From IMG/VR virus record IMGVR_UViG_3300027741_000022, positions 64,001-128,000 of that record: a stretch of DNA of 64,000 nucleotides. The stretch is one strand, 5' to 3'. The position numbers and the translations under genes are program-made. The notes below the pieces were generated by a model. That model was not told the origin of the DNA. It made no database searches and worked only from the letters and a program-made list of their open reading frames with translations. The DNA comes from a virus. This document shows, one piece after another, positions 6,960-56,733 of this stretch; the stretch's first letter is position 1, and every line of letters begins with the position of its first letter.

Positions 6960-7797
6960 CAATATACTTACAGTTGATAAAAAAGATCTTGATTTAACTG
7001 ACTCATCTGCAGTAGATAAATACTTTTCAGATAATTACATTGAGTATGTTTTTAATGCCGCTGCTAAAGTTGGTGGCATAAAAGCCAATAATACACAACC
7101 TGCAGATTTTATAACACAAAACATAAGAATACAAACTAATCTTATTGAATCTTCAAATAGACACGGTGTTAAAAAATTCTTGTTTCTCGGCAGCTCTTGC
7201 ATATACCCAAAATTTGCAAAACAACCAATAACAGAAGATCAATTGTTAGCTGGGTGTCTTGAGCCTACAAACGAAGCTTATGCTATCGCAAAAATCTGTG
7301 GAATTAAAATGTGTCAGGCATACAGTCAGCAATATGGATTCAATGCTATTTCCTTAATGCCAACAAACCTGTACGGTCCAGGAGATAATTATGATCCTAA
7401 AAACAGTCATGTATTGCCTGCTATGATCAGAAGGTTTCATGAAGCCAAAATTAATAATGTTTCTGAAGTGGTTTGTTGGGGTGATGGCTCACCAAAAAGA
7501 GAGTTTTTATATGTAGATGATCTGGCGTATGCTTGTTTGTTGTGTATGTTGAATTACGAAAGCGATGAAATTATAAATGTGGGAACAGGCACTGATATAA
7601 CCATAAAAGAGCTCGCTGGGATTGTTGCAAATGTTGTTGGTTATGAAGGAAGTATTGTTTGGGATGATGTTGCTGCAATCAACGGCACACCCAGAAAAGT
7701 TTTAAATATCGATAAGATAAAATCTCTTGGATGGGAAGCTAAAGTGGATTTACCCACGGGCATATCCGAGGCATACTCAAGTTTCTTGGCAAAGTAG
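6871..7797 (+). CDS. fcl: GDP-L-fucose synthase
   Basis: GHKGLVGSA, AAAKVGGI, LGSSCIYPK, EPTNEAYAIAK, PTNLYGPGD, SHVLPA, REFLYVDD. Confidence 0.95.
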   Translation: MNKTSRIFVTGHKGLVGSAILRNLQKNGYSNILTVDKKDLDLTDSSAVDKYFSDNYIEYVFNAAAKVGGIKANNTQPADFITQNIRIQTNLIESSNRHGVKKFLFLGSSCIYPKFAKQPITEDQLLAGCLEPTNEAYAIAKICGIKMCQAYSQQYGFNAISLMPTNLYGPGDNYDPKNSHVLPAMIRRFHEAKINNVSEVVCWGDGSPKREFLYVDDLAYACLLCMLNYESDEIINVGTGTDITIKELAGIVANVVGYEGSIVWDDVAAINGTPRKVLNIDKIKSLGWEAKVDLPTGISEAYSSFLAK

Positions 7798-7814
7798 TTT
7801 CCTCCCGGTACGCT
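7798..7814 (+). promoter_or_regulatory. repeated promoter-like motif, followed by a 10-bp hairpin (7815-7842)
   Basis: TTTCCTCCCGGTACGCT; TTGGCA lies 17 nt upstream of TACGCT. Confidence 0.75.
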
Positions 7815-7848
7815 CTCTTGTTGGCAGAAACACCAACAAGAGAAATAT

Positions 7849-8478
7849 ATGTACGATTCTTTTAAGTATCTTTATCCCCCGCGACCGGAAAACGCTTTAA
7901 CTCCCGATAGAATTTCATACTATGAAAAGCATGGATTTGTCGGTCAATACAAAAAGAACGGGACTTGTAGCATTTTTGCAATAAATCATCCTGCTGATTT
8001 TATTGCAATGACAAGACATAACGATAATCATAAGCAATGGGCATTTTCAGAGTATTTCCACGGTTGTTTTACCAAGTATCTTCCCGCGAATAAGTGGCAC
8101 GTTCTTGTTGGTGAAGTTCTTCATTCAAAGACAGTAAACATCAAAGACACAGTTTATATTTTCGATATTCTTGTGTATAATTCCGAAGAGCTTTATGGCT
8201 CAAAGTTTATGGATCGCCAAAATCTTCTTAAAGAGATATTCCAGGCAGATCATAAGCAGCAGATGTATTCTCATTATGAGGTCGAGCCAAGGTTTCTATT
8301 AGCTAGAAATTTTGAAGGTGGTATGTATGATATGTTTAAGAATATCGAGGACAAAACAGTAGACGAGGGTTTTGTTCTTAAAAAGAAGGACGCAATTCTT
8401 AAGGACTGCTACTCCCCCAGCAATAACAGTTCATGGCAGATTAAGTTTCGACACCCTTCTAAGAAATATCAGTTTTAA
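7849..8478 (+). CDS. ATP-dependent ligase-family nucleotidyltransferase (adenylation domain only)
   Basis: Motif I YKKNG, III VGEV, IIIa IFDIL, IV EGFVLK, V WQIKF; no OB domain. Confidence 0.75.
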   Translation: MYDSFKYLYPPRPENALTPDRISYYEKHGFVGQYKKNGTCSIFAINHPADFIAMTRHNDNHKQWAFSEYFHGCFTKYLPANKWHVLVGEVLHSKTVNIKDTVYIFDILVYNSEELYGSKFMDRQNLLKEIFQADHKQQMYSHYEVEPRFLLARNFEGGMYDMFKNIEDKTVDEGFVLKKKDAILKDCYSPSNNSSWQIKFRHPSKKYQF

Positions 8479-8858
8479 TGGATAATCTTGATAAACTTAT
8501 AGATGACCTAAGAGATCTCTTGTCCAGGAAATATATCGAACAATATTATTTAATTACGTCGAATTTGTCAGTTCGAGTAAAAGATCTTGATGTTTTGCAA
8601 AATTGGATTTGTTTTCTTAAAAAAAATAATATAGATTCACTTCAGCCGCCAGAAATTTGGAGTAAATGTTTGACTACTGAGGAAGTCTTGGTGAATTTAA
8701 TCAATAAAGATCAACACAAGATTAAAAATAAAATAATTTTCAAGATGCAAGATGCAAACCTTCAACAGTTTTTTCGATCAGTTCATAATAACAAATATTT
8801 TTTAACCACAAGAGAAAATGCTCAAAAATTAGTTGTTCTTGGATCTTTTGAAAATTAA
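8478..8858 (+). CDS. hypothetical protein
   Basis: ORF, translationally coupled. Confidence 0.55.
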   Translation: MDNLDKLIDDLRDLLSRKYIEQYYLITSNLSVRVKDLDVLQNWICFLKKNNIDSLQPPEIWSKCLTTEEVLVNLINKDQHKIKNKIIFKMQDANLQQFFRSVHNNKYFLTTRENAQKLVVLGSFEN

Positions 8859-8866
8859 GGGATTTA

Positions 8867-9445
8867 ATGTTATATACTAAGTTTAAAATTAGCGATCATG
8901 CTGCCGAGAGGTTTCGTGAAAGATTTGATCATATTAAGTTGTCGATAGACACTCTGCTGCAAAATTCTATTTATTTTGGTGGACAAAAAGGATCCGACTA
9001 CCTACTTATTAACAAAGAGCATGAAATCGTTTTTCCTGTATCCTGTGACCACATAATCAAATCGGTTCTCACGCTCCAGCAAGCTAAATCAAATCTTTCA
9101 CTTATTAACAAAACAATACTATTCGAATTAGAGAAGAGTAAGTGTGAAGAACTACGAAAAAACGCCGAAGATGAAATTGTCAGTAAATTAAAAATTTTGG
9201 CAAGAGAATATCTTTCTCTTAGACCAGAAGAGCACAGAAATTGTCCTGGAGTTCAAGAGACAAAGTGTTTGATAAAGAAAATTAAAAAGACATTATCTTT
9301 GCCCTCTGCACAGATCGACAAAATTTTTATAGGTGAAATAATAAGAATCGTGCAAGAGTCAGATTGGTCTTGTTTGAATCCTGATAGTAACTGGTCTAGC
9401 ACCGAGGAATTGTTATCTAATTTTAAGTTAGATCCAAAAGCTTAA
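8867..9445 (+). CDS. hypothetical protein
   Basis: ORF; N-term ISDHAAERFRER. Confidence 0.6.
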   Translation: MLYTKFKISDHAAERFRERFDHIKLSIDTLLQNSIYFGGQKGSDYLLINKEHEIVFPVSCDHIIKSVLTLQQAKSNLSLINKTILFELEKSKCEELRKNAEDEIVSKLKILAREYLSLRPEEHRNCPGVQETKCLIKKIKKTLSLPSAQIDKIFIGEIIRIVQESDWSCLNPDSNWSSTEELLSNFKLDPKA

Positions 9446-10027
9446 TGGACACCAAATTCTATTTGATAAACCGCATTTTCTCAATCCAATATTCACCCAG
9501 TTATTGCAGTTTGTTACACAGCTATATTTTAGATTTGACTCGTAAAAGTCCCCAATCTGATAGTGCCAATCTTCTTTTTTTATTTTTTGTTTATTGTATG
9601 AATTTGTTATATGTTTCTTTAATGCGTTGAATTGTTTTTTGTTTGCAGTGAATTTTTTCAATCTTTTTTCTTTGGGAATTTCATCTAAAAAGTCTACTCT
9701 CAATACGGTTTTGTTTAATCCAAAGAAAGCTTTTACAAAATTTTCAATTTTTAGATCTGCCCACTTTTGTGTCTCTAAGAATATTGATCTGTCGCCCCAA
9801 CCTATTGAAACATATTTCTTATCAGTCTTAAATATATTTGTCCAATCTTTTGATTCAAAAACATAGTCAGAATGAATAGCATCTTTTATCACAAAAATCT
9901 TTTTTCTGCCTTTCAATTTCTCAATTTTTCCACTTTTAAATAGCGGCAAAAGCAAGCAACAAATCAAATAAATTAAGAATATTGGGAAAAAAACTAAAAA
10001 TACGGTAAAATAAAACAATTTCTTCAT
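9428..10027 (-). CDS. DUF2459-like membrane-anchored protein
   Basis: N-term TM helix, IHSD, IGWGDR, NCNNW. Confidence 0.65.
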   Translation of the reverse strand: MKKLFYFTVFLVFFPIFLIYLICCLLLPLFKSGKIEKLKGRKKIFVIKDAIHSDYVFESKDWTNIFKTDKKYVSIGWGDRSIFLETQKWADLKIENFVKAFFGLNKTVLRVDFLDEIPKEKRLKKFTANKKQFNALKKHITNSYNKQKIKKEDWHYQIGDFYESNLKYSCVTNCNNWVNIGLRKCGLSNRIWCPLSFWI

Positions 10028-10128
10028 GCATTAGCTATCCATTTTATTTTAATTTTTAAATAAAAGAATTATATATACTTATAGAAGAAATTGTTTCTTC
10101 TATTGTCTTAATTTTTAAGGAGAAAAAT

Positions 10129-10347
10129 ATGGCTAGCTATGCAGTTAAATTAACTCCCGATGTTGTAAACCTCGGGACAGAAGGTTCTTTAGACGTTACC
10201 GTCAATGGCGTAAGCATCCAAAGAACAATGGACATGGTTCTTGTTAAGAACAGCGGTTACAAAATGGTCAGCAGACTAAAAGATGGCGATACATTTGATG
10301 ACGTTGTTTCTGATCTTGGCATGTACGCAAACGTTGTTGAACTCTGA
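10129..10347 (+). CDS. small hypothetical protein
   Basis: Strong SD (AAGGAGA) and downstream terminator. Confidence 0.75.
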   Translation: MASYAVKLTPDVVNLGTEGSLDVTVNGVSIQRTMDMVLVKNSGYKMVSRLKDGDTFDDVVSDLGMYANVVEL

Positions 10348-10375
10348 TCTATTTTTTCATAAAATGGTCTAAATT

Positions 10376-10416
10376 GGACGCTCTGGTTGAAAAACTTGGG
10401 CGTCTTTTTATTTTTT
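10376..10416 (+). terminator. intrinsic terminator
   Basis: Stem-loop followed by a T-tract. Confidence 0.65.
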
Positions 10417-10426
10417 AGGTGAGAAA

Positions 10427-11179
10427 GTGATTTACAAAAACCGATCCCAGGCAGTCAAAGAAACTGGAATTTCTTATTTAGGATCTGTGAATCTTACTGC
10501 AAAGCACATAAAAGCCTATAAGTATAACGAGCTTACATATTCGCTTTATTTAGCTCCAGCAGACATATCTGGATATGAAGTTTGTCCTCTCAGAACAAAA
10601 GATTGCACAAGAGCTTGTTTGCATGAATCTGGGTTAAACAAAATAGATGTTAAGGCAAACAAGATAAATAAATCCAGGATTGCCAAGACTAAATTGTTTT
10701 TCGAAAACAGAGATTTCTTTATGCGTTGGATGATTGATGAAATCCAATCCGCAAGAGAAAAAGCCACTAGACAGAACCAAAGGTTTTCGGTTAGACTCAA
10801 CAACACTAGCGATATATCGCCGGAGCAGTTTGCCTTGGGTGGCAAAAATATATTAGAAATTTTTAATGAAAATCAATTTTATGACTACACGAAGCTATAC
10901 AGAAGAATAGATCTTGCTAAAAAGTATCCCAATTACGATATAACCTTTAGTTATAGCGGTGAAAATAAAGAAGATTGTTTAAATGCCTTGAATATAGATG
11001 ATACTCGGGTTGCAGTTGTTTTTAAGGATGTTTTGCCCGAAAAATTTTGGGATTTTGATGTTGTGAATGGCGATGAATATGACATGAGATATTATGATCC
11101 CAAGAATGTTGTGATTGGATTAAAGTTTAAAGACGTAAGAAACGAAATAGATTTCGAAAACACTTCTTTCATAAACTAA
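10427..11179 (+). CDS. phage GP88-like protein
   Basis: LYLAPA, CP..C..ACL, RLNNTSDI, FYDYTK, NGDEYD.R..D, IGLKFK. Confidence 0.7.
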   Translation: MIYKNRSQAVKETGISYLGSVNLTAKHIKAYKYNELTYSLYLAPADISGYEVCPLRTKDCTRACLHESGLNKIDVKANKINKSRIAKTKLFFENRDFFMRWMIDEIQSAREKATRQNQRFSVRLNNTSDISPEQFALGGKNILEIFNENQFYDYTKLYRRIDLAKKYPNYDITFSYSGENKEDCLNALNIDDTRVAVVFKDVLPEKFWDFDVVNGDEYDMRYYDPKNVVIGLKFKDVRNEIDFENTSFIN

Positions 11180-28204: not shown

Positions 28205-28789
28205 ATGAAAAATATTCCTGTAGGATCTGTTGTTAAAGGCTTTACAAAGCTCGGAAGTCAAACAAAAGAAAAATGGACAAGGGGAACTTATATTGGCAAC
28301 AATAAGGTGGAGTTTTGGACAGGTGTTGTAGTAACTCTGCCGGACGACAAGATCAAAGAGTATAAAAGGTTTGAGCGAATTGGTAAGGAATATCCAGAGC
28401 AAAGTGATTTTGTAAATAAAAATTGGAATAAACTCAAAGAAGATGTAAAAGAAAGCGTAAGTAAATTTTTTCCTCAAGTTAAACTTGAAATAGACGAAGA
28501 AGATTATGTTATTTATGCTCTTGAAAATTCAGTTAGTATTTGTCCTGCTATTATTGAGCGGGAAAGTATTTTTGCTTTTACAGAAACTTCCACTTGGCAG
28601 GTTTGCGTAGAGATAAATTATCCGTCTACACGTTGGGAGCCAAGCACAAGTGAGTTATCAGAAATCAGCGAGTCTCCAAACACTATAACAGCATCTAGAA
28701 TGTTCCTAGATGCTGTTTGGAAATACTCTACAGAAGATTATTGGCAGAACAAATATGATGATGAATTGGCAAAGGAGTTTGTTGATTAA
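28205..28789 (+). CDS. hypothetical protein
   Basis: ORF. Confidence 0.6.
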   Translation: MKNIPVGSVVKGFTKLGSQTKEKWTRGTYIGNNKVEFWTGVVVTLPDDKIKEYKRFERIGKEYPEQSDFVNKNWNKLKEDVKESVSKFFPQVKLEIDEEDYVIYALENSVSICPAIIERESIFAFTETSTWQVCVEINYPSTRWEPSTSELSEISESPNTITASRMFLDAVWKYSTEDYWQNKYDDELAKEFVD

Positions 28790-28839
28790 TAATACCTAAA
28801 AAGAAGTAGAAGAATGGCAAGCAATATAATATATATTGT

Positions 28840-29073
28840 ATGCCTAAATTTTATGTAAAACACAAAGATTTAACACTTCTCACAGATGAAATTAATTCAG
28901 AAAACGCAGCAGCTAGAATGATGCTTTTGCTTGAAGAGTTGAATACAAAAAGCTTAATTTATGTAGATGAACGAGGATACAGGACAAAAACTGCTGCATA
29001 CAAGTATAGTATTGTTAAAACAATTAGCAGGCACTCAAACAAGCCTGTTTGGTATTTGAAAATCAAAAAATAA
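28840..29073 (+). CDS. hypothetical protein
   Basis: ORF. Confidence 0.5.
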   Translation: MPKFYVKHKDLTLLTDEINSENAAARMMLLLEELNTKSLIYVDERGYRTKTAAYKYSIVKTISRHSNKPVWYLKIKK

Positions 29074-29157
29074 TGCTGTTTCTTTTGAGGCTCTATACAA
29101 AGAGGTCAGCAGCAGATACAATACGTCGGTATTTTTCCGATCCTTCAAGGAAGAAGA

Positions 29158-29619
29158 TTGTTTATGAAAGAAATGAATCCAGAGCTAGTTGAATCACTGG
29201 CTTATCTGGAAGAAAAACAACAACGATCTAAATCTTTGGTTGTTTGGGATACACCAACACCAATTATTGATTTTGGATCTTTTGAGTGGGAAGTTCCTTT
29301 TCTCACTGTTTGGCTTGACGATGTAAGACCAATGCCAAAAGATTTTGATGTTCATGTGACAAACGCACATGATGCAATAGAAATACTTAAAAAAAATAGA
29401 GTTAGACTTATCAGTCTTGATCATGATTTGGGTGAAGATACTCAAACAGGATATGATGTCGCAAAGTTTATTGAAAAACAGGCTTACGAATACTCAATAG
29501 ACAATAAAAATGGTTTGAAGCCCATCGAAATTAGGGTTCATTCCTCAAATCCTGCTGGTGTTAAAAATATTTTGATGTGCATTGAAAACGCATATGATTT
29601 TTGGGATACGGAGGCTTAA
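29158..29619 (+). CDS. cyclic-phosphate-processing receiver domain protein
   Basis: WLDDVRP, ISLDHDLG, TGYD, VHSSNP. Confidence 0.75.
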   Translation: MFMKEMNPELVESLAYLEEKQQRSKSLVVWDTPTPIIDFGSFEWEVPFLTVWLDDVRPMPKDFDVHVTNAHDAIEILKKNRVRLISLDHDLGEDTQTGYDVAKFIEKQAYEYSIDNKNGLKPIEIRVHSSNPAGVKNILMCIENAYDFWDTEA

Positions 29620-38159: not shown

Positions 38160-38231
38160 GCAGTTCTGGCAGAGAAGTTATGCACTTCACTTGTAATGAA
38201 GACTAGGTGGGCGCGATACCCATGGACTGCT
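38160..38231 (+). tRNA. trnT: tRNA-Thr(UGU) with atypical D and T loops
   Basis: Acceptor GCAGTTC/GGACTGC, anticodon arm CTTCA-CTTGTAA-TGAAG, T arm GTGGG-CGCGATA-CCCAT. Confidence 0.75.
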
Positions 38232-38288
38232 CTTAAAATCACCAAAACGTTTTCGAAAAAATTTTACGGCATTTTACTTATATACTAT

Positions 38289-38879
38289 ATGAGTAAATTA
38301 AGCCCATCAGAGTGCGGAAAACTTGGTTACGAAAAAACAAAAAAAATCTTTGAAGAAAGACGAGAGTTAGCCCGGCAATCTTATTCAGATAACCCAAATT
38401 GTTGCCAATATTGTGGGGCTAAATTAGAATACGAGTCCAGGAAAAATAAATTTTGCACCAGATCTTGTTCTGCTAAAGTCAACAACGCAGATAGACGTAA
38501 AATAAGATTATGTTTGTATTGCAACAAACAACATAAATCAAAAAAATATTGTTCTCAGCAATGCAGAACAGATCTGGAGTGGCAGATCAAAAAAAATAAA
38601 ATAAACGAAAGCGGTAAAGTTGAAGGATCAAGACAAGCACGCCGCTATCTACTTGAAAAATTTAACAGTTGTCAAATGTGCGGCAATGATACTTGGCTCG
38701 GAAAACCAATTTTGCTTATATGTGATCACATAAATGGAAATTCAGAAGATTGGCGGCTTGATAACTTAAGAATGATATGTTCTAATTGTGATGCAACCAC
38801 ACCTTTCTACAAAAATAAAAACATGGGAAATGGGAGAGCATATAGAAGGTTGAGATATAAAGAGGGAAAATCTTTTTGA
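38289..38879 (+). CDS. free-standing HNH endonuclease with N-terminal Zn fingers
   Basis: CDHINGN..DNLRMICSNCD; several CxxC. Confidence 0.85.
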   Translation: MSKLSPSECGKLGYEKTKKIFEERRELARQSYSDNPNCCQYCGAKLEYESRKNKFCTRSCSAKVNNADRRKIRLCLYCNKQHKSKKYCSQQCRTDLEWQIKKNKINESGKVEGSRQARRYLLEKFNSCQMCGNDTWLGKPILLICDHINGNSEDWRLDNLRMICSNCDATTPFYKNKNMGNGRAYRRLRYKEGKSF

Positions 38880-38919: not shown

Positions 38920-39198
38920 TGCCCGATAGCTTAACTGGTAGAGCAAGGGATTTTGTTAAAAACAGGATGCTCTAAGAGAAATTTTAGAAGTAGAATTGCT
39001 TAAATTCGGTGAAAGCTTTAAAATGCCAATACCGAGCCAAGCCTAAGAAAAATCTTAGGAAGGTGTAGAGACTTAACAGGCAACACCTAAAGCTAACGCC
39101 ATGGTGAAGATAAAGTCCAGACCACAAACAGCAATGGTAGTGAAAACTATAGTGGTAAGTGGTTCCCTAGGTTAGAGGTTCGACTCCTCTTCGGGCAT
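38920..39198 (+). tRNA. trnQ: tRNA-Gln(UUG) interrupted by a group I intron
   Basis: Acceptor TGCCCGA/TCGGGCA; spliced loop TT-TTG-GT in stem AGGGA/TCCCT. Confidence 0.8.
38954..39159 (+). mobile_element. group I intron (IC3-like, 206 nt, no ORF)
   Basis: AAATTCGGTGAA, AATACCGAGCCAAGCC, GGTGTAGAGACT, AAAGTCCAGAC core; U34-G wobble in P1; terminal G. Confidence 0.88.
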
Positions 39199-39723: not shown

Positions 39724-40165
39724 TTCGTTTCTACTGATATTTTTACTTTTAACAAACATTTCATTTGCTGAAGACTATGTTCTTCTTAATATTGATGTAG
39801 AAATTGATGCTGATCAAGAATATGTTGATCTGCCAGCTATCTCAAAGCAGAGTGAAAAAACTGAAAATCATATTGGATATGGAATCCATTTAGATGAATG
39901 GAATGTTAAAAACTACATCTCAAGAATTCACTTCAAAGAAAAACTTAAAAGTGATTCAATAATTAAAAAGAATACTCTTATTGTTTTGAATGGCAAACAC
40001 GAAGTTGAAAAAACAATTGATGGAACATTTGCACACAAATTTTTCGTAAAAGAACCAAAAGAGATAGAGTATATTGCCTGTGGAGTCTATATTGACTATT
40101 ATAGAGATTTGCTGGGAGAAAAAGTAAGGTTGGTTGGTAGATCGTTTCCAGAGAATTATCGATGA
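39716..40165 (+). CDS. putative secreted protein
   Basis: N-terminal signal peptide-like segment. Confidence 0.55.
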   Translation: MNNSFLLIFLLLTNISFAEDYVLLNIDVEIDADQEYVDLPAISKQSEKTENHIGYGIHLDEWNVKNYISRIHFKEKLKSDSIIKKNTLIVLNGKHEVEKTIDGTFAHKFFVKEPKEIEYIACGVYIDYYRDLLGEKVRLVGRSFPENYR

Positions 40166-40761
40166 TAACTTTAATTGGCGATTTGCATGGTAAGTATAAA
40201 CGTTACCATGAAATAATCAGAGAAAAAGATCGCCACCCTTATACAATTCAATTGGGGGACTTTGGATTCGACTACAGCACGTTAGATAATGTTGATCCAA
40301 AAAATCATAAGTTCATTGGTGGCAACCATGATAATTATGATAAAGTCAATGCTGTTTCTCATTATCTCGGAGATTTTGGTTATACAACTTTAAACGATGT
40401 TGACTTTTTCTATTATAGGGGTGCATGGAGCATCGATCAGATATATCGCACAATAGGCATAGACTGGTGGGAGCAAGAACAAGTTAATATAGAGGGCTTT
40501 ATGAAGGCAAGAGAACTCTATCGACAAATAAAGCCAGACATTGTATTAACTCATGATTGTCCTGAAAGTGTTACTCCTTATCTTTTGCCTCCCGGTAGTA
40601 GAATATTTCAACAAAATACTGGCTGGGCTTTGCAAGAGCTATTTAATATTCATCAGCCAAAGATTTGGCGGTTTGGTCATTATCACAAAAGTTGGCAAAT
40701 GAATATTAGTGGTACAGATTTTAGATGTTTAAATGAGTTGGAAACAGAGGTGATCAGTTAA
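40162..40761 (+). CDS. metallophosphoesterase
   Basis: IGDLHG, LGDFG, GGNHD, THDCP, FGHYH. Confidence 0.85.
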   Translation: MITLIGDLHGKYKRYHEIIREKDRHPYTIQLGDFGFDYSTLDNVDPKNHKFIGGNHDNYDKVNAVSHYLGDFGYTTLNDVDFFYYRGAWSIDQIYRTIGIDWWEQEQVNIEGFMKARELYRQIKPDIVLTHDCPESVTPYLLPPGSRIFQQNTGWALQELFNIHQPKIWRFGHYHKSWQMNISGTDFRCLNELETEVIS

Positions 40762-41503: not shown

Positions 41504-41748
41504 AGAAAATCATTTTTTTAATAGTTTGCTTGCTATCTGTTTCAGTAAGCTGCGCGTGGTACGCTGTTCGACAAGATTCAATTCCAAAGATTGTTTCAAA
41601 ATCTGATGGTGCAGTTCCAATGGACAGTCCAAGAAAAAGCACAAGAATGGTAACTGTTCAACATGATGGACATTGGTTTTTAGTTCTTGGAGAACATTTT
41701 ACGCACCACATTGATTGCCCTTGTAAAAAAGCACTTGAAAAAGAGTGA
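41500..41748 (+). CDS. small secreted protein
   Basis: Signal peptide; C-term HHIDCPC. Confidence 0.55.
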   Translation: MKKIIFLIVCLLSVSVSCAWYAVRQDSIPKIVSKSDGAVPMDSPRKSTRMVTVQHDGHWFLVLGEHFTHHIDCPCKKALEKE

Positions 41749-41785
41749 GGGTAGCCAACTATTACATTAGCTACCCTCACTTTTA
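41744..41785. terminator. probable bidirectional terminator
   Basis: AGTGAGGGTAGC / GCTACCCTCACT between convergent units. Confidence 0.75.
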
Positions 41786-41789
41786 TATG

Positions 41790-41926
41790 CTGACGAAACA
41801 GGTTTCGAACCTGTAACCTAGCGGTTATTCCACTGTTGGGAATTGAACCCAATAAATATCCAGCTTTTTGAGCTTCAATTCAGTGGCTTTGTACAGCCGC
41901 TCGCTCTACCGTTGAGCTATTCGCCA
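41790..41926 (-). tRNA. trnN: tRNA-Asn(GUU) with a 65-nt insertion in the anticodon loop
   Basis: Acceptor TGGCGAA/TTCGTCA, G73, D arm GCTC-AACGGTA-GAGC, stem AGCGG/CCGCT; CTGT+TAA rejoins to CT-GTT-AA. Confidence 0.75.
41828..41892 (-). other. tRNA-shaped insert or non-group-I intron inside tRNA-Asn
   Basis: Stem CCACTG/CAGTGG, hairpin AGCT-CAAAA-AGCT, T-arm TTGGG-TTCAATT-CCCAA. Confidence 0.7.
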
Positions 41927-42050
41927 GTGATAAAAGTATTATACCATAGCTTAGTTTAAAATCAACCGTTTTGCTGAAAAATTAGTTTTTGACAAAACAA
42001 AAATTTCTGGTATCCTCTTAGCACCCACTATTTTTTCCAAGGAGGGAAAA

Positions 42051-56414: not shown

Positions 56415-56687
56415 GGGAGCGTAGACCAACGGCAGAGTCAAAGGACTTGATATTAAATTGAGTGCTTAAAGAGAAATCTTTAATGTAGAATCGCTTAAAT
56501 TCGGTGAAAGCTTAACTGCCAATACCGAGCCAAGCCTAGAAATAGGAAGGTGTAGAGACTTAACAGGCGACACCTAAAGTCGAAAGACAATGGTGAAGAT
56601 AAAGTCCAGACTACAAACCGCAAGGGTAGTGAAAACTATAGTAGTAAGAAAATCCTTCAAGTACGAGTTCGAATCTCGTCGCTCCTA
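56415..56687 (+). tRNA. trnL: tRNA-Leu(UAA) interrupted by a group I intron; short variable loop
   Basis: Acceptor GGGAGCG/CGCTCCT, A73; spliced loop CT-TAA-AA in stem AAGGA/TCCTT. Confidence 0.82.
56449..56648 (+). mobile_element. group I intron (200 nt, no ORF)
   Basis: Same core; U34-G wobble; ends GTAAG. Confidence 0.88.
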
Positions 56688-56733
56688 CTGTCATCGATGT
56701 TAATTTAATTTATTCACTAACTAACTAAAACTC

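Follow-up and report, generated by a model that had tools for sequence, protein, structure and literature searches.

A tRNA-Asn(GUU) gene split within its anticodon by a short structured insert in an uncultured freshwater jumbo phage

The interrupted tRNA-Asn gene and its transcription unit

The DNA analyzed here, referred to as the window, is a stretch of 64,000 nt (positions 64,001 to 128,000) of the IMG/VR record IMGVR_UViG_3300027741_000022. This record, designated G000, is a virus contig of 187.6 kb with 35 % G+C and an estimated completeness of 75 %, and its source is an uncultured freshwater jumbo phage. The minus strand of the window contains, at 41790–41926, a tRNA-Asn gene in which an insert of 65 nt (41828–41892) sits exactly between U35 and U36, inside the anticodon. 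The gene fits the Rfam tRNA model RF00005 end to end (model positions 1–71; 50.2 bits against a gathering score of 29), in agreement with the coordinates, the strand and the anticodon insert given in a first-pass annotation of the locus; the alignment leaves 68 nt unaligned in the anticodon loop. ARAGORN missed the gene in its normal mode and found it only when introns were allowed, mis-parsed as Ile(aat).

The 5′ exon (41893–41926) comprises the acceptor strand TGGCGAA, the D-arm, the anticodon-stem strand AGCGG and then C32, U33, G34 and U35. The 3′ exon (41790–41827) resumes with U36, A37 and A38, followed by CCGCT, the variable loop AGGTT, the T-arm, the acceptor strand TTCGTCA and G73, and it does not encode CCA. 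The anticodon loop in the DNA is CUGU, 65 nt and UAA, and a contiguous 7-nt GUU loop is absent unless the insert is removed. Upstream of the gene there is a sigma-70-type promoter (41938–41965, minus strand) formed by TTGATT, a 16-nt spacer and a TG-extended TATAAT, with 10 of 12 matches and the TG present. This promoter ends 11 nt before tRNA position 1, so that the 5′ leader should be only a few nt long, and TATAAT-like boxes are found at an equal distance upstream of the homologues described below. An intrinsic terminator (41744–41781, minus strand), with a 16-bp stem followed by CTTTTT, begins 8 nt after G73. Since the gene has its own promoter and terminator and lies antisense between open reading frames (ORFs) of the plus strand, it is a self-contained transcription unit, of about 190 nt.

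The identity of the tRNA was established by comparison with uninterrupted genes. Seven uninterrupted phage tRNAs with the same 25-nt stretch from the D-arm to U35 read GGCTGT-TAACCGCT, which corresponds to Asn(GUU), and uninterrupted tRNA-Asn relatives with identical flanks have the anticodon loop CTGTTAA, which places the junction at CTGT|TAA. Another gene (L101) with the same acceptor and D arms is likewise an ordinary, uninterrupted tRNA-Asn(GUU). The body of the window gene is also of the Asn type, with G73 and a 5-nt variable loop, and ARAGORN parsed the homologous copy L006, from the related contig G001, as Asn(gtt) i(36,64), with a 64-nt intron. The spliced product would be a tRNA-Asn(GUU), in which the 5′ exon, ending in GCGGCUGU, would be joined to UAACCGCUAGG, with a predicted exon-exon junction of GGCUGU-UAACCGCU in the RNA. 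The alternative junction, shifted by one base to give GUA (Tyr), was set aside, both because the uninterrupted relatives read CTGTTAA and because there is a separate tRNA-Tyr(GUA) in related phages; the preference of the first-pass annotation for Asn was therefore correct.

The interrupted gene is the only tRNA-Asn gene in each of three large related phages. G000 carries seven tRNA genes, whereas G001 and G002 (the contig of homologue L017) carry 16–17 each, including a separate class II tRNA-Tyr(GUA) of 83 nt; no second Asn tRNA gene was found among the 7–17 tRNA genes of any of the three contigs, whose completeness is 75–88 % and within which alone absences of genes, here and below, are to be counted.

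Conservation, folding and diversity of the insert

Pattern scans of IMG/VR and the JGI metagenomes recovered five further distinct versions of the interrupted gene (L006, L017, L028, L033 and L051), all from freshwater phage contigs of different metagenomes and some of them recurring across samples. Together with the window copy, they form a structure-guided alignment of six distinct versions in which the insert is 62–69 nt long and G73, the whole tRNA shape and the split anticodon bases are invariant. A BLAST comparison of the locus with 50,697 GenBank phage records gave no match, IMG/VR did not contain an exact 23-mer of the insert, and a degenerate pattern of the T-arm and stem gave 19 matches, of which only four were tRNA-Asn homologues. 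The family pattern identified no bacterial copy in 185,579 GTDB species genomes, producing just two chance matches in coding sequence. Additionally, a covariance model of the insert alone found a single copy per genome in five related genomes, in each case within tRNA-Asn, and neither stand-alone copies nor copies in other tRNAs above noise. There is no synteny around the gene among the relatives, with genes for HNH endonucleases as the sole common neighbors.

The insert folds as a three-way junction in which the closing stem leads without linker into a long third arm, followed, after 1–4 nt, by a T-arm that is continuous with the closing stem. It starts with a 5′ spacer, ACAAAG (41887–41892), which is AYAAAG in the family, invariant in the six sequences except for the Y, unpaired in this nested fold and absent from other insert families at U35/U36. 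The 5′ strand of the acceptor-like closing stem, CCACTG (41881–41886), pairs with 41830–41835 and is 100 % paired in the six sequences. The third arm (41855–41880) consists of a helix between AAUU (41880–41877) and AUU (41857–41855), an internal loop, and the hairpin AGCU-CAAAA-AGCU (41874–41862); both the CAAAA loop and a GG that follows the hairpin (41861–41860) are conserved. The T-arm (41836–41852), with TTGGG, the loop TTCAATT and CCCAA, abuts the 3′ strand of the closing stem without a spacer, and the equivalents of U54, U55 and A58 are kept in its loop in all six versions. The last segment (41828–41835) contains CAGTGG, then an A and finally an A or T, which resembles a discriminator and is the last base of the insert; A41829 stands opposite G41887, as a mismatch similar to a 1–72 pair. 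The 6-bp stem stacked on a T-arm that had been noticed at first pass is thus present, and so is the hairpin then described as D-like, except that it is not a separate element and sits instead on the longer, covarying third arm.

This nested fold is supported by covariation. In the alignment, 98.6 % of the cells are paired and 10 pairs are changed on both sides, compared with 2.3 ± 1.3 in shuffles and 0–3 in slid controls, although the number of sequences, six and all related, is small and shuffling exaggerates significance when relatives are compared. Inside the insert, the outer helix of the third arm has two double-changed pairs, and the closing stem, hairpin and T-stem have one each. The closing stem changes from G-C to U-A in L017 and from U-A to a U-G wobble in L028; the hairpin, from U-A to C-G in L006 and L028; and the T-stem, from U-A to C-G in L006 and from G-C to a G-U wobble in L033. 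The outer helix of the third arm is 90.9 % paired, and both of its variable pairs become C-G in L033 (CC/GG). Despite the small number of sequences, the pattern is consistent in every helix. In the exons, L051 differs at five of the seven acceptor pairs and at two T-stem pairs, and all these changes are compensated; the exons are under tRNA-type selection. A search for homologues and covariation, as proposed with the first-pass annotation, returned the same insert, at the same site and with its structure kept, in six versions, contrary to the lack of conserving homologues that had been named there as a ground for refutation.

The insert can also adopt alternative folds. In the window, the motif AATTGAA pairs with the T-loop TTCAATT and is part of the minimum-energy fold, as had been noticed earlier; this complementarity is lost in the compared relatives (for instance, L006 has AATTAAA and TTCAAAC), and the fold was ruled out as a feature of the family because it is peculiar to the window. 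A different alternative is conserved in its place. Because the stem of the insert, CCACU/AGUGG, nearly duplicates that of the anticodon, CCGCU/AGCGG, the four strands can swap partners and form the hairpins AGCGGCU-GUAYAA-AGCCACU and AGUGG-AWUAA-CCGCU, in which the last two bases of the spacer, A and G, pair with U33 and C32. All six homologues can form both the nested and the swapped folds, and pairing is preserved in both at the two positions that vary (A to G, in L017 and L028). The lone covariation that discriminates between them, in which the basal pair of the closing stem changes from G-C to U-A in L017, favors the nested fold. The splice sites would be within a 10 × 5 internal loop in the nested fold and after the second base of hairpin loops of 6 and 5 nt in the swapped fold (GU|AYAA and AW|UAA). 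The swap is peculiar to the family of the window, with hairpins of −7.6 and −4.5 kcal/mol compared to 0 to −3.2 kcal/mol in other insert families.

These other families were found by scanning for tRNA-Asn genes with any insert of 40–70 nt between CTGT and TAACCG, which yielded 46 stretches, a few of which are uninterrupted genes. About ten unrelated insert families of 47–68 nt occur at U35/U36 of tRNA-Asn(GUU) genes in other phage contigs (L059–L100), and removal of the insert restores the 7-nt loop CUGUUAA in every family. Nearly all of them have one unpaired base, usually G, before a closing stem of 4–7 bp, and in nearly all the 3′ strand of this stem comes after a T-loop-like hairpin; in most, the closing stem is flanked by a G facing an A, and the T-like loop is of the UGCAA or UUCAA type. 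The 3′ tail is of 2 nt in the families of 65–68 nt, that is, in the family of the window and two unrelated ones. When the first base and the base after the stem are counted as a mismatched 1–72 pair, the inserts of the two unrelated 65–68-nt families run exactly from position 1 to the discriminator, and their 5′ end also fits RNase P. The 5′ spacer is where the window's family departs from the rest, as it has five extra bases (AYAAA) where ten other families have 0–1 nt. The occurrence of at least ten unrelated families at one position indicates that the phenomenon is widespread; such genes are missed by tRNA annotation of phage genomes.

Possible removal of the insert and competing explanations

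The insert belongs neither to the group I introns nor to the known ribozymes or the bulge-helix-bulge introns. In 41700–42000 the group I model RF00028 had no match at E ≤ 10, although it gives 61 bits for two introns located elsewhere in the window; group I identity was rejected on this ground, because the insert has 62–69 nt instead of about 200 nt or more, and because its last base is A or U and not G. Parsing the insert so that it ends in G gives the anticodons AAU or AUU, inconsistently between homologues. A deletion derivative of the resident group I introns was also discarded, since local alignment scores were no higher than those of shuffled sequences. No ribozyme model in Rfam (hammerhead, twister, HDV-like and others) matched at E ≤ 10, the tRNA itself and three chance-level matches being the only ones returned. 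By inspection, no 3-4-3 motif of a bulge-helix-bulge intron could be drawn on the conserved folds, and the EndA/Sen domain PF01974 had no match in G000, G001 or G002. These results agree with the earlier judgment, by which the insert lacks the size for self-splicing and does not qualify as a bulge-helix-bulge intron.

The reading to which we give most weight, with a rough probability of 0.45, is that this is a working tRNA-Asn(GUU) gene with a protein-dependent intron that does not self-splice, which would be cut by tRNA end-processing nucleases and sealed by a ligase of the Rnl1 type. Host tRNA end-processing enzymes would mature the pre-tRNA, leaving 3′-OH and 5′-phosphate ends. If G41887 and A41829 are counted as positions 1 and 72 and the next base as the discriminator, an RNase Z-type cut after the latter would coincide with the 3′ splice site and free pU36. 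The 5′ site (U35|A) would need either trimming of AYAAA or a second endonucleolytic cut in the single-stranded spacer, a step to which we assign no enzyme. The exon halves, held together by the acceptor and anticodon stems, would then be sealed by an ATP-dependent RNA ligase, with a T4 Rnl1-family enzyme as the best candidate.

Several observations are consistent with this pathway. On precursors that lack CCA, RNase Z cleaves immediately 3′ of the discriminator; like RNase P, it leaves 3′-OH and 5′-phosphate ends, which are substrates of ATP-dependent RNA ligases; and T4 Rnl1 reseals broken anticodon loops. In the insert, a canonical T-arm continues an acceptor-like stem and a third arm is also present, all backed by covariation, and the 3′ boundary of the insert has, in geometry only, the expected arrangement: 6 bp, the G-A apposition and a 5-bp T-stem, then one base (A or U) and the 3′ splice site. 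None of the approximately 40 tRNA genes of G000–G002 encodes CCA, and their trailers are U-rich; the infected cell must consequently cut 3′ trailers and add CCA, and we infer that an RNase Z-type activity is available in it. A homologue of the CCA-adding enzyme is encoded in G001 (192744–193115).

A candidate for the sealing step is encoded in G000, outside the window (28455–29468). This Rnl1-family ligase of 337 aa contains the motif EKYDGS and matches PF09511 with 49.4 bits (cut-off 28.3) and T4 Rnl1 structures at 3e-15; its match to TIGR02308 (2.4e-16) reaches 59.8 bits and is below the equivalog cut-off of 242 bits. G001 has a homologue of this ligase, and G002 has an RNA ligase of family PF09414 (81.7 bits). 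RtcB and the phosphatase PNK3P were not found in G000–G002, nor the kinase AAA_33 in G000, which fits a 3′-OH/5′-phosphate chemistry. Moreover, among phage genomes that are 100 % complete and carry inserts of this sort in tRNA-Asn, five of five match a family of ATP-dependent RNA ligases, with two of these matches below the cut-off. Comparing phages with insert-bearing and with uninterrupted tRNA-Asn genes, the co-occurrence with ligases is suggestive, not decisive, because most of the contigs are fragments. The ligase initially proposed for this role, at 7849–8478 in the window, is a less clear candidate: this ORF codes for a minimal, uncharacterized ligase-like protein of 209 aa with the motifs KKNG, DEGFVLKK and WQIKFR. 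It could not be classified as an RNA ligase, as it has weak matches to DNA-ligase domains (DNA_ligase_A_M), no relative in the PDB and a single-sequence AlphaFold model with a pLDDT of 35, which is useless. The contig of L017 contains a counterpart (9928–10560; 68 % identical) situated 29 nt upstream of a tRNA-Ser gene and next to the interrupted tRNA-Asn.

Other observations weigh against removal by end-processing enzymes. RNase P would cut at the G opposite A, whereas the 5′ splice site lies 5 nt upstream of that base and 6 nt upstream of the first pair, so that such a cut would leave the AYAAAG spacer on the 5′ exon; we know of no exonuclease that stops precisely at U35. Of the earlier suggestion that the insert is removed by tRNA-processing nucleases, the part concerning the 3′ boundary fits and that concerning the 5′ boundary does not. 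The 3′ tails of 5 nt in the short families (47–51 nt) do not fit a cut after the discriminator either, which implies that one simple rule for RNases P and Z does not cover all the families. Neither ARAGORN, in its bacterial and mitochondrial modes, nor Rfam calls the insert as a tRNA, and nearest-neighbor energies favor the swapped fold, in which the closing stem is destroyed, by 2.6–4.3 kcal/mol in six of six sequences. RNA ligases are common in large phages, including some with an uninterrupted tRNA-Asn, and a missing gene proves little, since the genome is about 75 % complete and the genomes searched were those of phages.

Some of these points suit a different account, in which the gene is also spliced but the insert is cut by another endonuclease, of phage or host origin, that would read the tRNA body or the loops of the swapped fold. 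The cut would leave 2′,3′-cyclic phosphate and 5′-OH ends, to be joined by the host RtcB or, after healing, by Rnl1. The swapped fold is possible in all six homologues, with the variable positions paired in it as well, and is the more stable one by the above energies; the swap and the 5′ spacer that contributes to it are peculiar to the window's family, and boundaries that differ between insert families are yet constant relative to the exons. There is also a metallophosphoesterase gene (40162–40761) 1 kb away. We nevertheless consider this account unlikely: the searches of G000–G002 revealed no candidate endonuclease and, as indicated, no EndA domain, RtcB or PNK3P, nor AAA_33 in G000; it would assign no function to the tRNA-like shape that the insert conserves; and the single discriminating covariation, in L017, backs the nested fold.

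Somewhat less likely still is that the RNA is never spliced and acts as a 137-nt mimic of tRNA-Asn, which might decoy or soak up an anticodon nuclease of the host or some other defense or modification enzyme that binds tRNAs, with the insert making the RNA uncleavable or non-decoding. The invariance of the tRNA shape, of G73 and of the split anticodon bases would suit such a decoy, and so would the anticodon-loop repair-type ligase of the phage; besides, phage tRNAs that counter tRNA-targeting defenses have been described (PMC10264068, PMC11555353). However, a decoy is difficult to reconcile with a gene that is the sole Asn tRNA of three phages whose tRNAs are otherwise ordinary and decoding, and whose copies in G001 and L028 sit in ordinary tRNA clusters. 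Removal restores a normal loop in every insert family. Moreover, bona fide self-splicing introns interrupt the anticodon loop of further tRNAs in this genome, in which interrupted functional tRNAs are thus the norm.

A third possibility, which we regard as improbable, is that the insert itself is the product: end-processing enzymes would release a stable tRNA-like RNA of about 60 nt, and the tRNA-Asn frame would be a carrier for its transcription and processing. Conservation of the insert equals or exceeds that of the distal parts of the exons, the insert being nearly identical in L051 in spite of the five altered acceptor pairs, and its CAAAA loop and the GG after the hairpin are conserved. 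Against this, there are no stand-alone copies in the five related genomes, the covariation of the exons shows selection on the tRNA frame itself, and many unrelated inserts occupy one site, pointing to the site and not to a particular cargo as what matters. Lastly, although standard tRNA finders do not call the gene, a pseudogene inactivated by a chance insertion, one of the options initially contemplated, is very unlikely, given that six diverged copies show compensatory changes in exons and insert, the promoter and terminator are kept, and the gene is the sole Asn tRNA in three genomes.

Returning to removal by end-processing enzymes, a more specific version can be proposed, as a tentative idea that we would expect to fail more often than to hold. 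It would constitute a third tRNA-splicing route, in bacterial viruses, next to the self-splicing of group I introns and the endonuclease route of archaea and eukaryotes: the intron, with the shape of a tRNA's upper half, would attract the end-processing nucleases of the cell, and a phage ligase of the Rnl1 type would rejoin the loop; in the window's family, the strand swap and the AYAAAG spacer might set or time the 5′ cut.

Group I introns, related systems and neighboring genes

Four other tRNA genes of G000 carry related group I introns in the anticodon loop, all without ORFs and of about 200 nt. Three are in the window (38920–39198, 55619–55891 and 56415–56688), with RF00028 matches at 38943–39140 and 56439–56624, and one is elsewhere in G000 (147989–148285); G001 and G002 have one group I tRNA intron each. 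The isotype calls of ARAGORN for these interrupted tRNAs look unreliable: the junction of that at 55619–55891 reads Lys(UUU), and that at 56415–56688 combines the anticodon UAA with a variable loop that is unusually short for a Leu tRNA.

The insert has probably spread as selfish DNA. Free-standing HNH endonuclease genes occur in tRNA clusters, and at three of the six loci one is found 40–350 nt away from the split tRNA-Asn gene: L006 (9128–9607), L017 (10682–11149) and L051 (3340–3972). This proximity fits homing with a free-standing endonuclease, but it may equally reflect the habit of HNH genes of settling in tRNA clusters. The window contains a homologue in another tRNA cluster (38196–38879); its predicted start overlaps a tRNA-Thr gene (38160–38232), and the true start is probably later.

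The interrupted tRNA-Asn can be compared with several known systems. It shares with group I tRNA introns the interrupted anticodon loop, the lack of an ORF and the vicinity of HNH genes, and the two types coexist in one genome; the insert differs in its size (62–69 compared to about 200 nt), in its end in A or U, in its site (35/36) and in having no similarity to the resident introns. As with the archaeal and eukaryal introns that are cut by EndA/Sen at bulge-helix-bulge motifs and whose exons RtcB or Trl1 joins, the removal proposed here would be the protein-dependent excision of a short anticodon-loop intron with the exons held by the tRNA body. Unlike those introns, it has no bulge-helix-bulge, its site is 35/36 and not 37/38, neither EndA nor RtcB was found in G000–G002, and the context is of the bacterial type, with a transfer-messenger RNA (tmRNA) and a sigma-70-type promoter.

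In phage T4, Rnl1 and Pnkp repair anticodon loops broken by the host nuclease PrrC. The phage of the window also has an Rnl1-family ligase, and the last step proposed would likewise be the sealing of a nick in the anticodon loop; it differs from T4 in that AAA_33 was not found in G000 nor PNK3P in G000–G002, and in that the break would be programmed by the intron instead of inflicted by a defense. A further parallel is mascRNA, a tRNA-like element released from the longer MALAT1 RNA by RNase P and RNase Z. Both would use an embedded acceptor/T minihelix as a handle for tRNA end-processing enzymes, but mascRNA is eukaryotic and 3′-terminal, and its flanks are not religated, whereas here only the 3′ boundary fits.

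The closest precedent is the report by Devoto et al. (2019, Nat Microbiol; PMC6784885) of highly conserved, “enigmatic” tRNA introns in Lak megaphages, which could not be classified with Rfam and one of which, with a predicted tRNA fold of its own, may encode a tRNA; no mechanism was given. This is the sole related account that we found in the literature, where no published mechanism for such introns was found, and on its account the description of the insert as an unrecognized type of intron, made at first pass, was too strong. As in the Lak phages, a short, non-ribozyme insert is conserved between phages in the anticodon region of a tRNA. The Lak introns differ in that they are from gut Prevotella megaphages and not from a freshwater phage, interrupt Thr or Tyr instead of Asn tRNAs, and are probably unrelated in sequence; the insert of the window, moreover, is not callable as a tRNA and has a 6-nt 5′ spacer and a conserved strand-swap fold. 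The locus is, then, a new sequence family of the enigmatic-intron kind in a different phage group, distinguished by the 5′ spacer, the strand-swap fold and the group I introns in neighboring tRNAs.

A non-self-splicing insert in the sole Asn tRNA implies either an enzyme-driven splicing route in bacterial cells or tRNA look-alikes with another job. The only tRNA introns generally recognized in bacteria and their viruses are self-splicing ones. If the former is true, phage RNA ligases would gain a role beyond the repair of damage caused by defenses. The locus is a clean test case, consisting of a unit of about 190 nt with known boundaries and six natural variants, in a genome with a ligase of the Rnl1 type and with group I introns as internal controls.

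Other features near these genes deserve mention. The gene 1 kb from the tRNA-Asn (40162–40761) codes for a calcineurin-like metallophosphoesterase (phrog_1649), perhaps an enzyme that heals RNA ends, perhaps just a common phage phosphatase; relatives do not keep it beside the tRNA. The tmRNA of the phage (56734–57095; 123 bits) is situated about 45 nt downstream of an intron-containing tRNA and has the tag GTVNYAMAA, with GTNSYAMAA in relatives. We take this short, G-initial tag to resemble those of Bacteroidota, which is a possible hint to the host. In L033, a T4-like portal gene with an intein (7204–9702; Portal_T4 and Intein_splicing) lies directly beside the interrupted tRNA-Asn.

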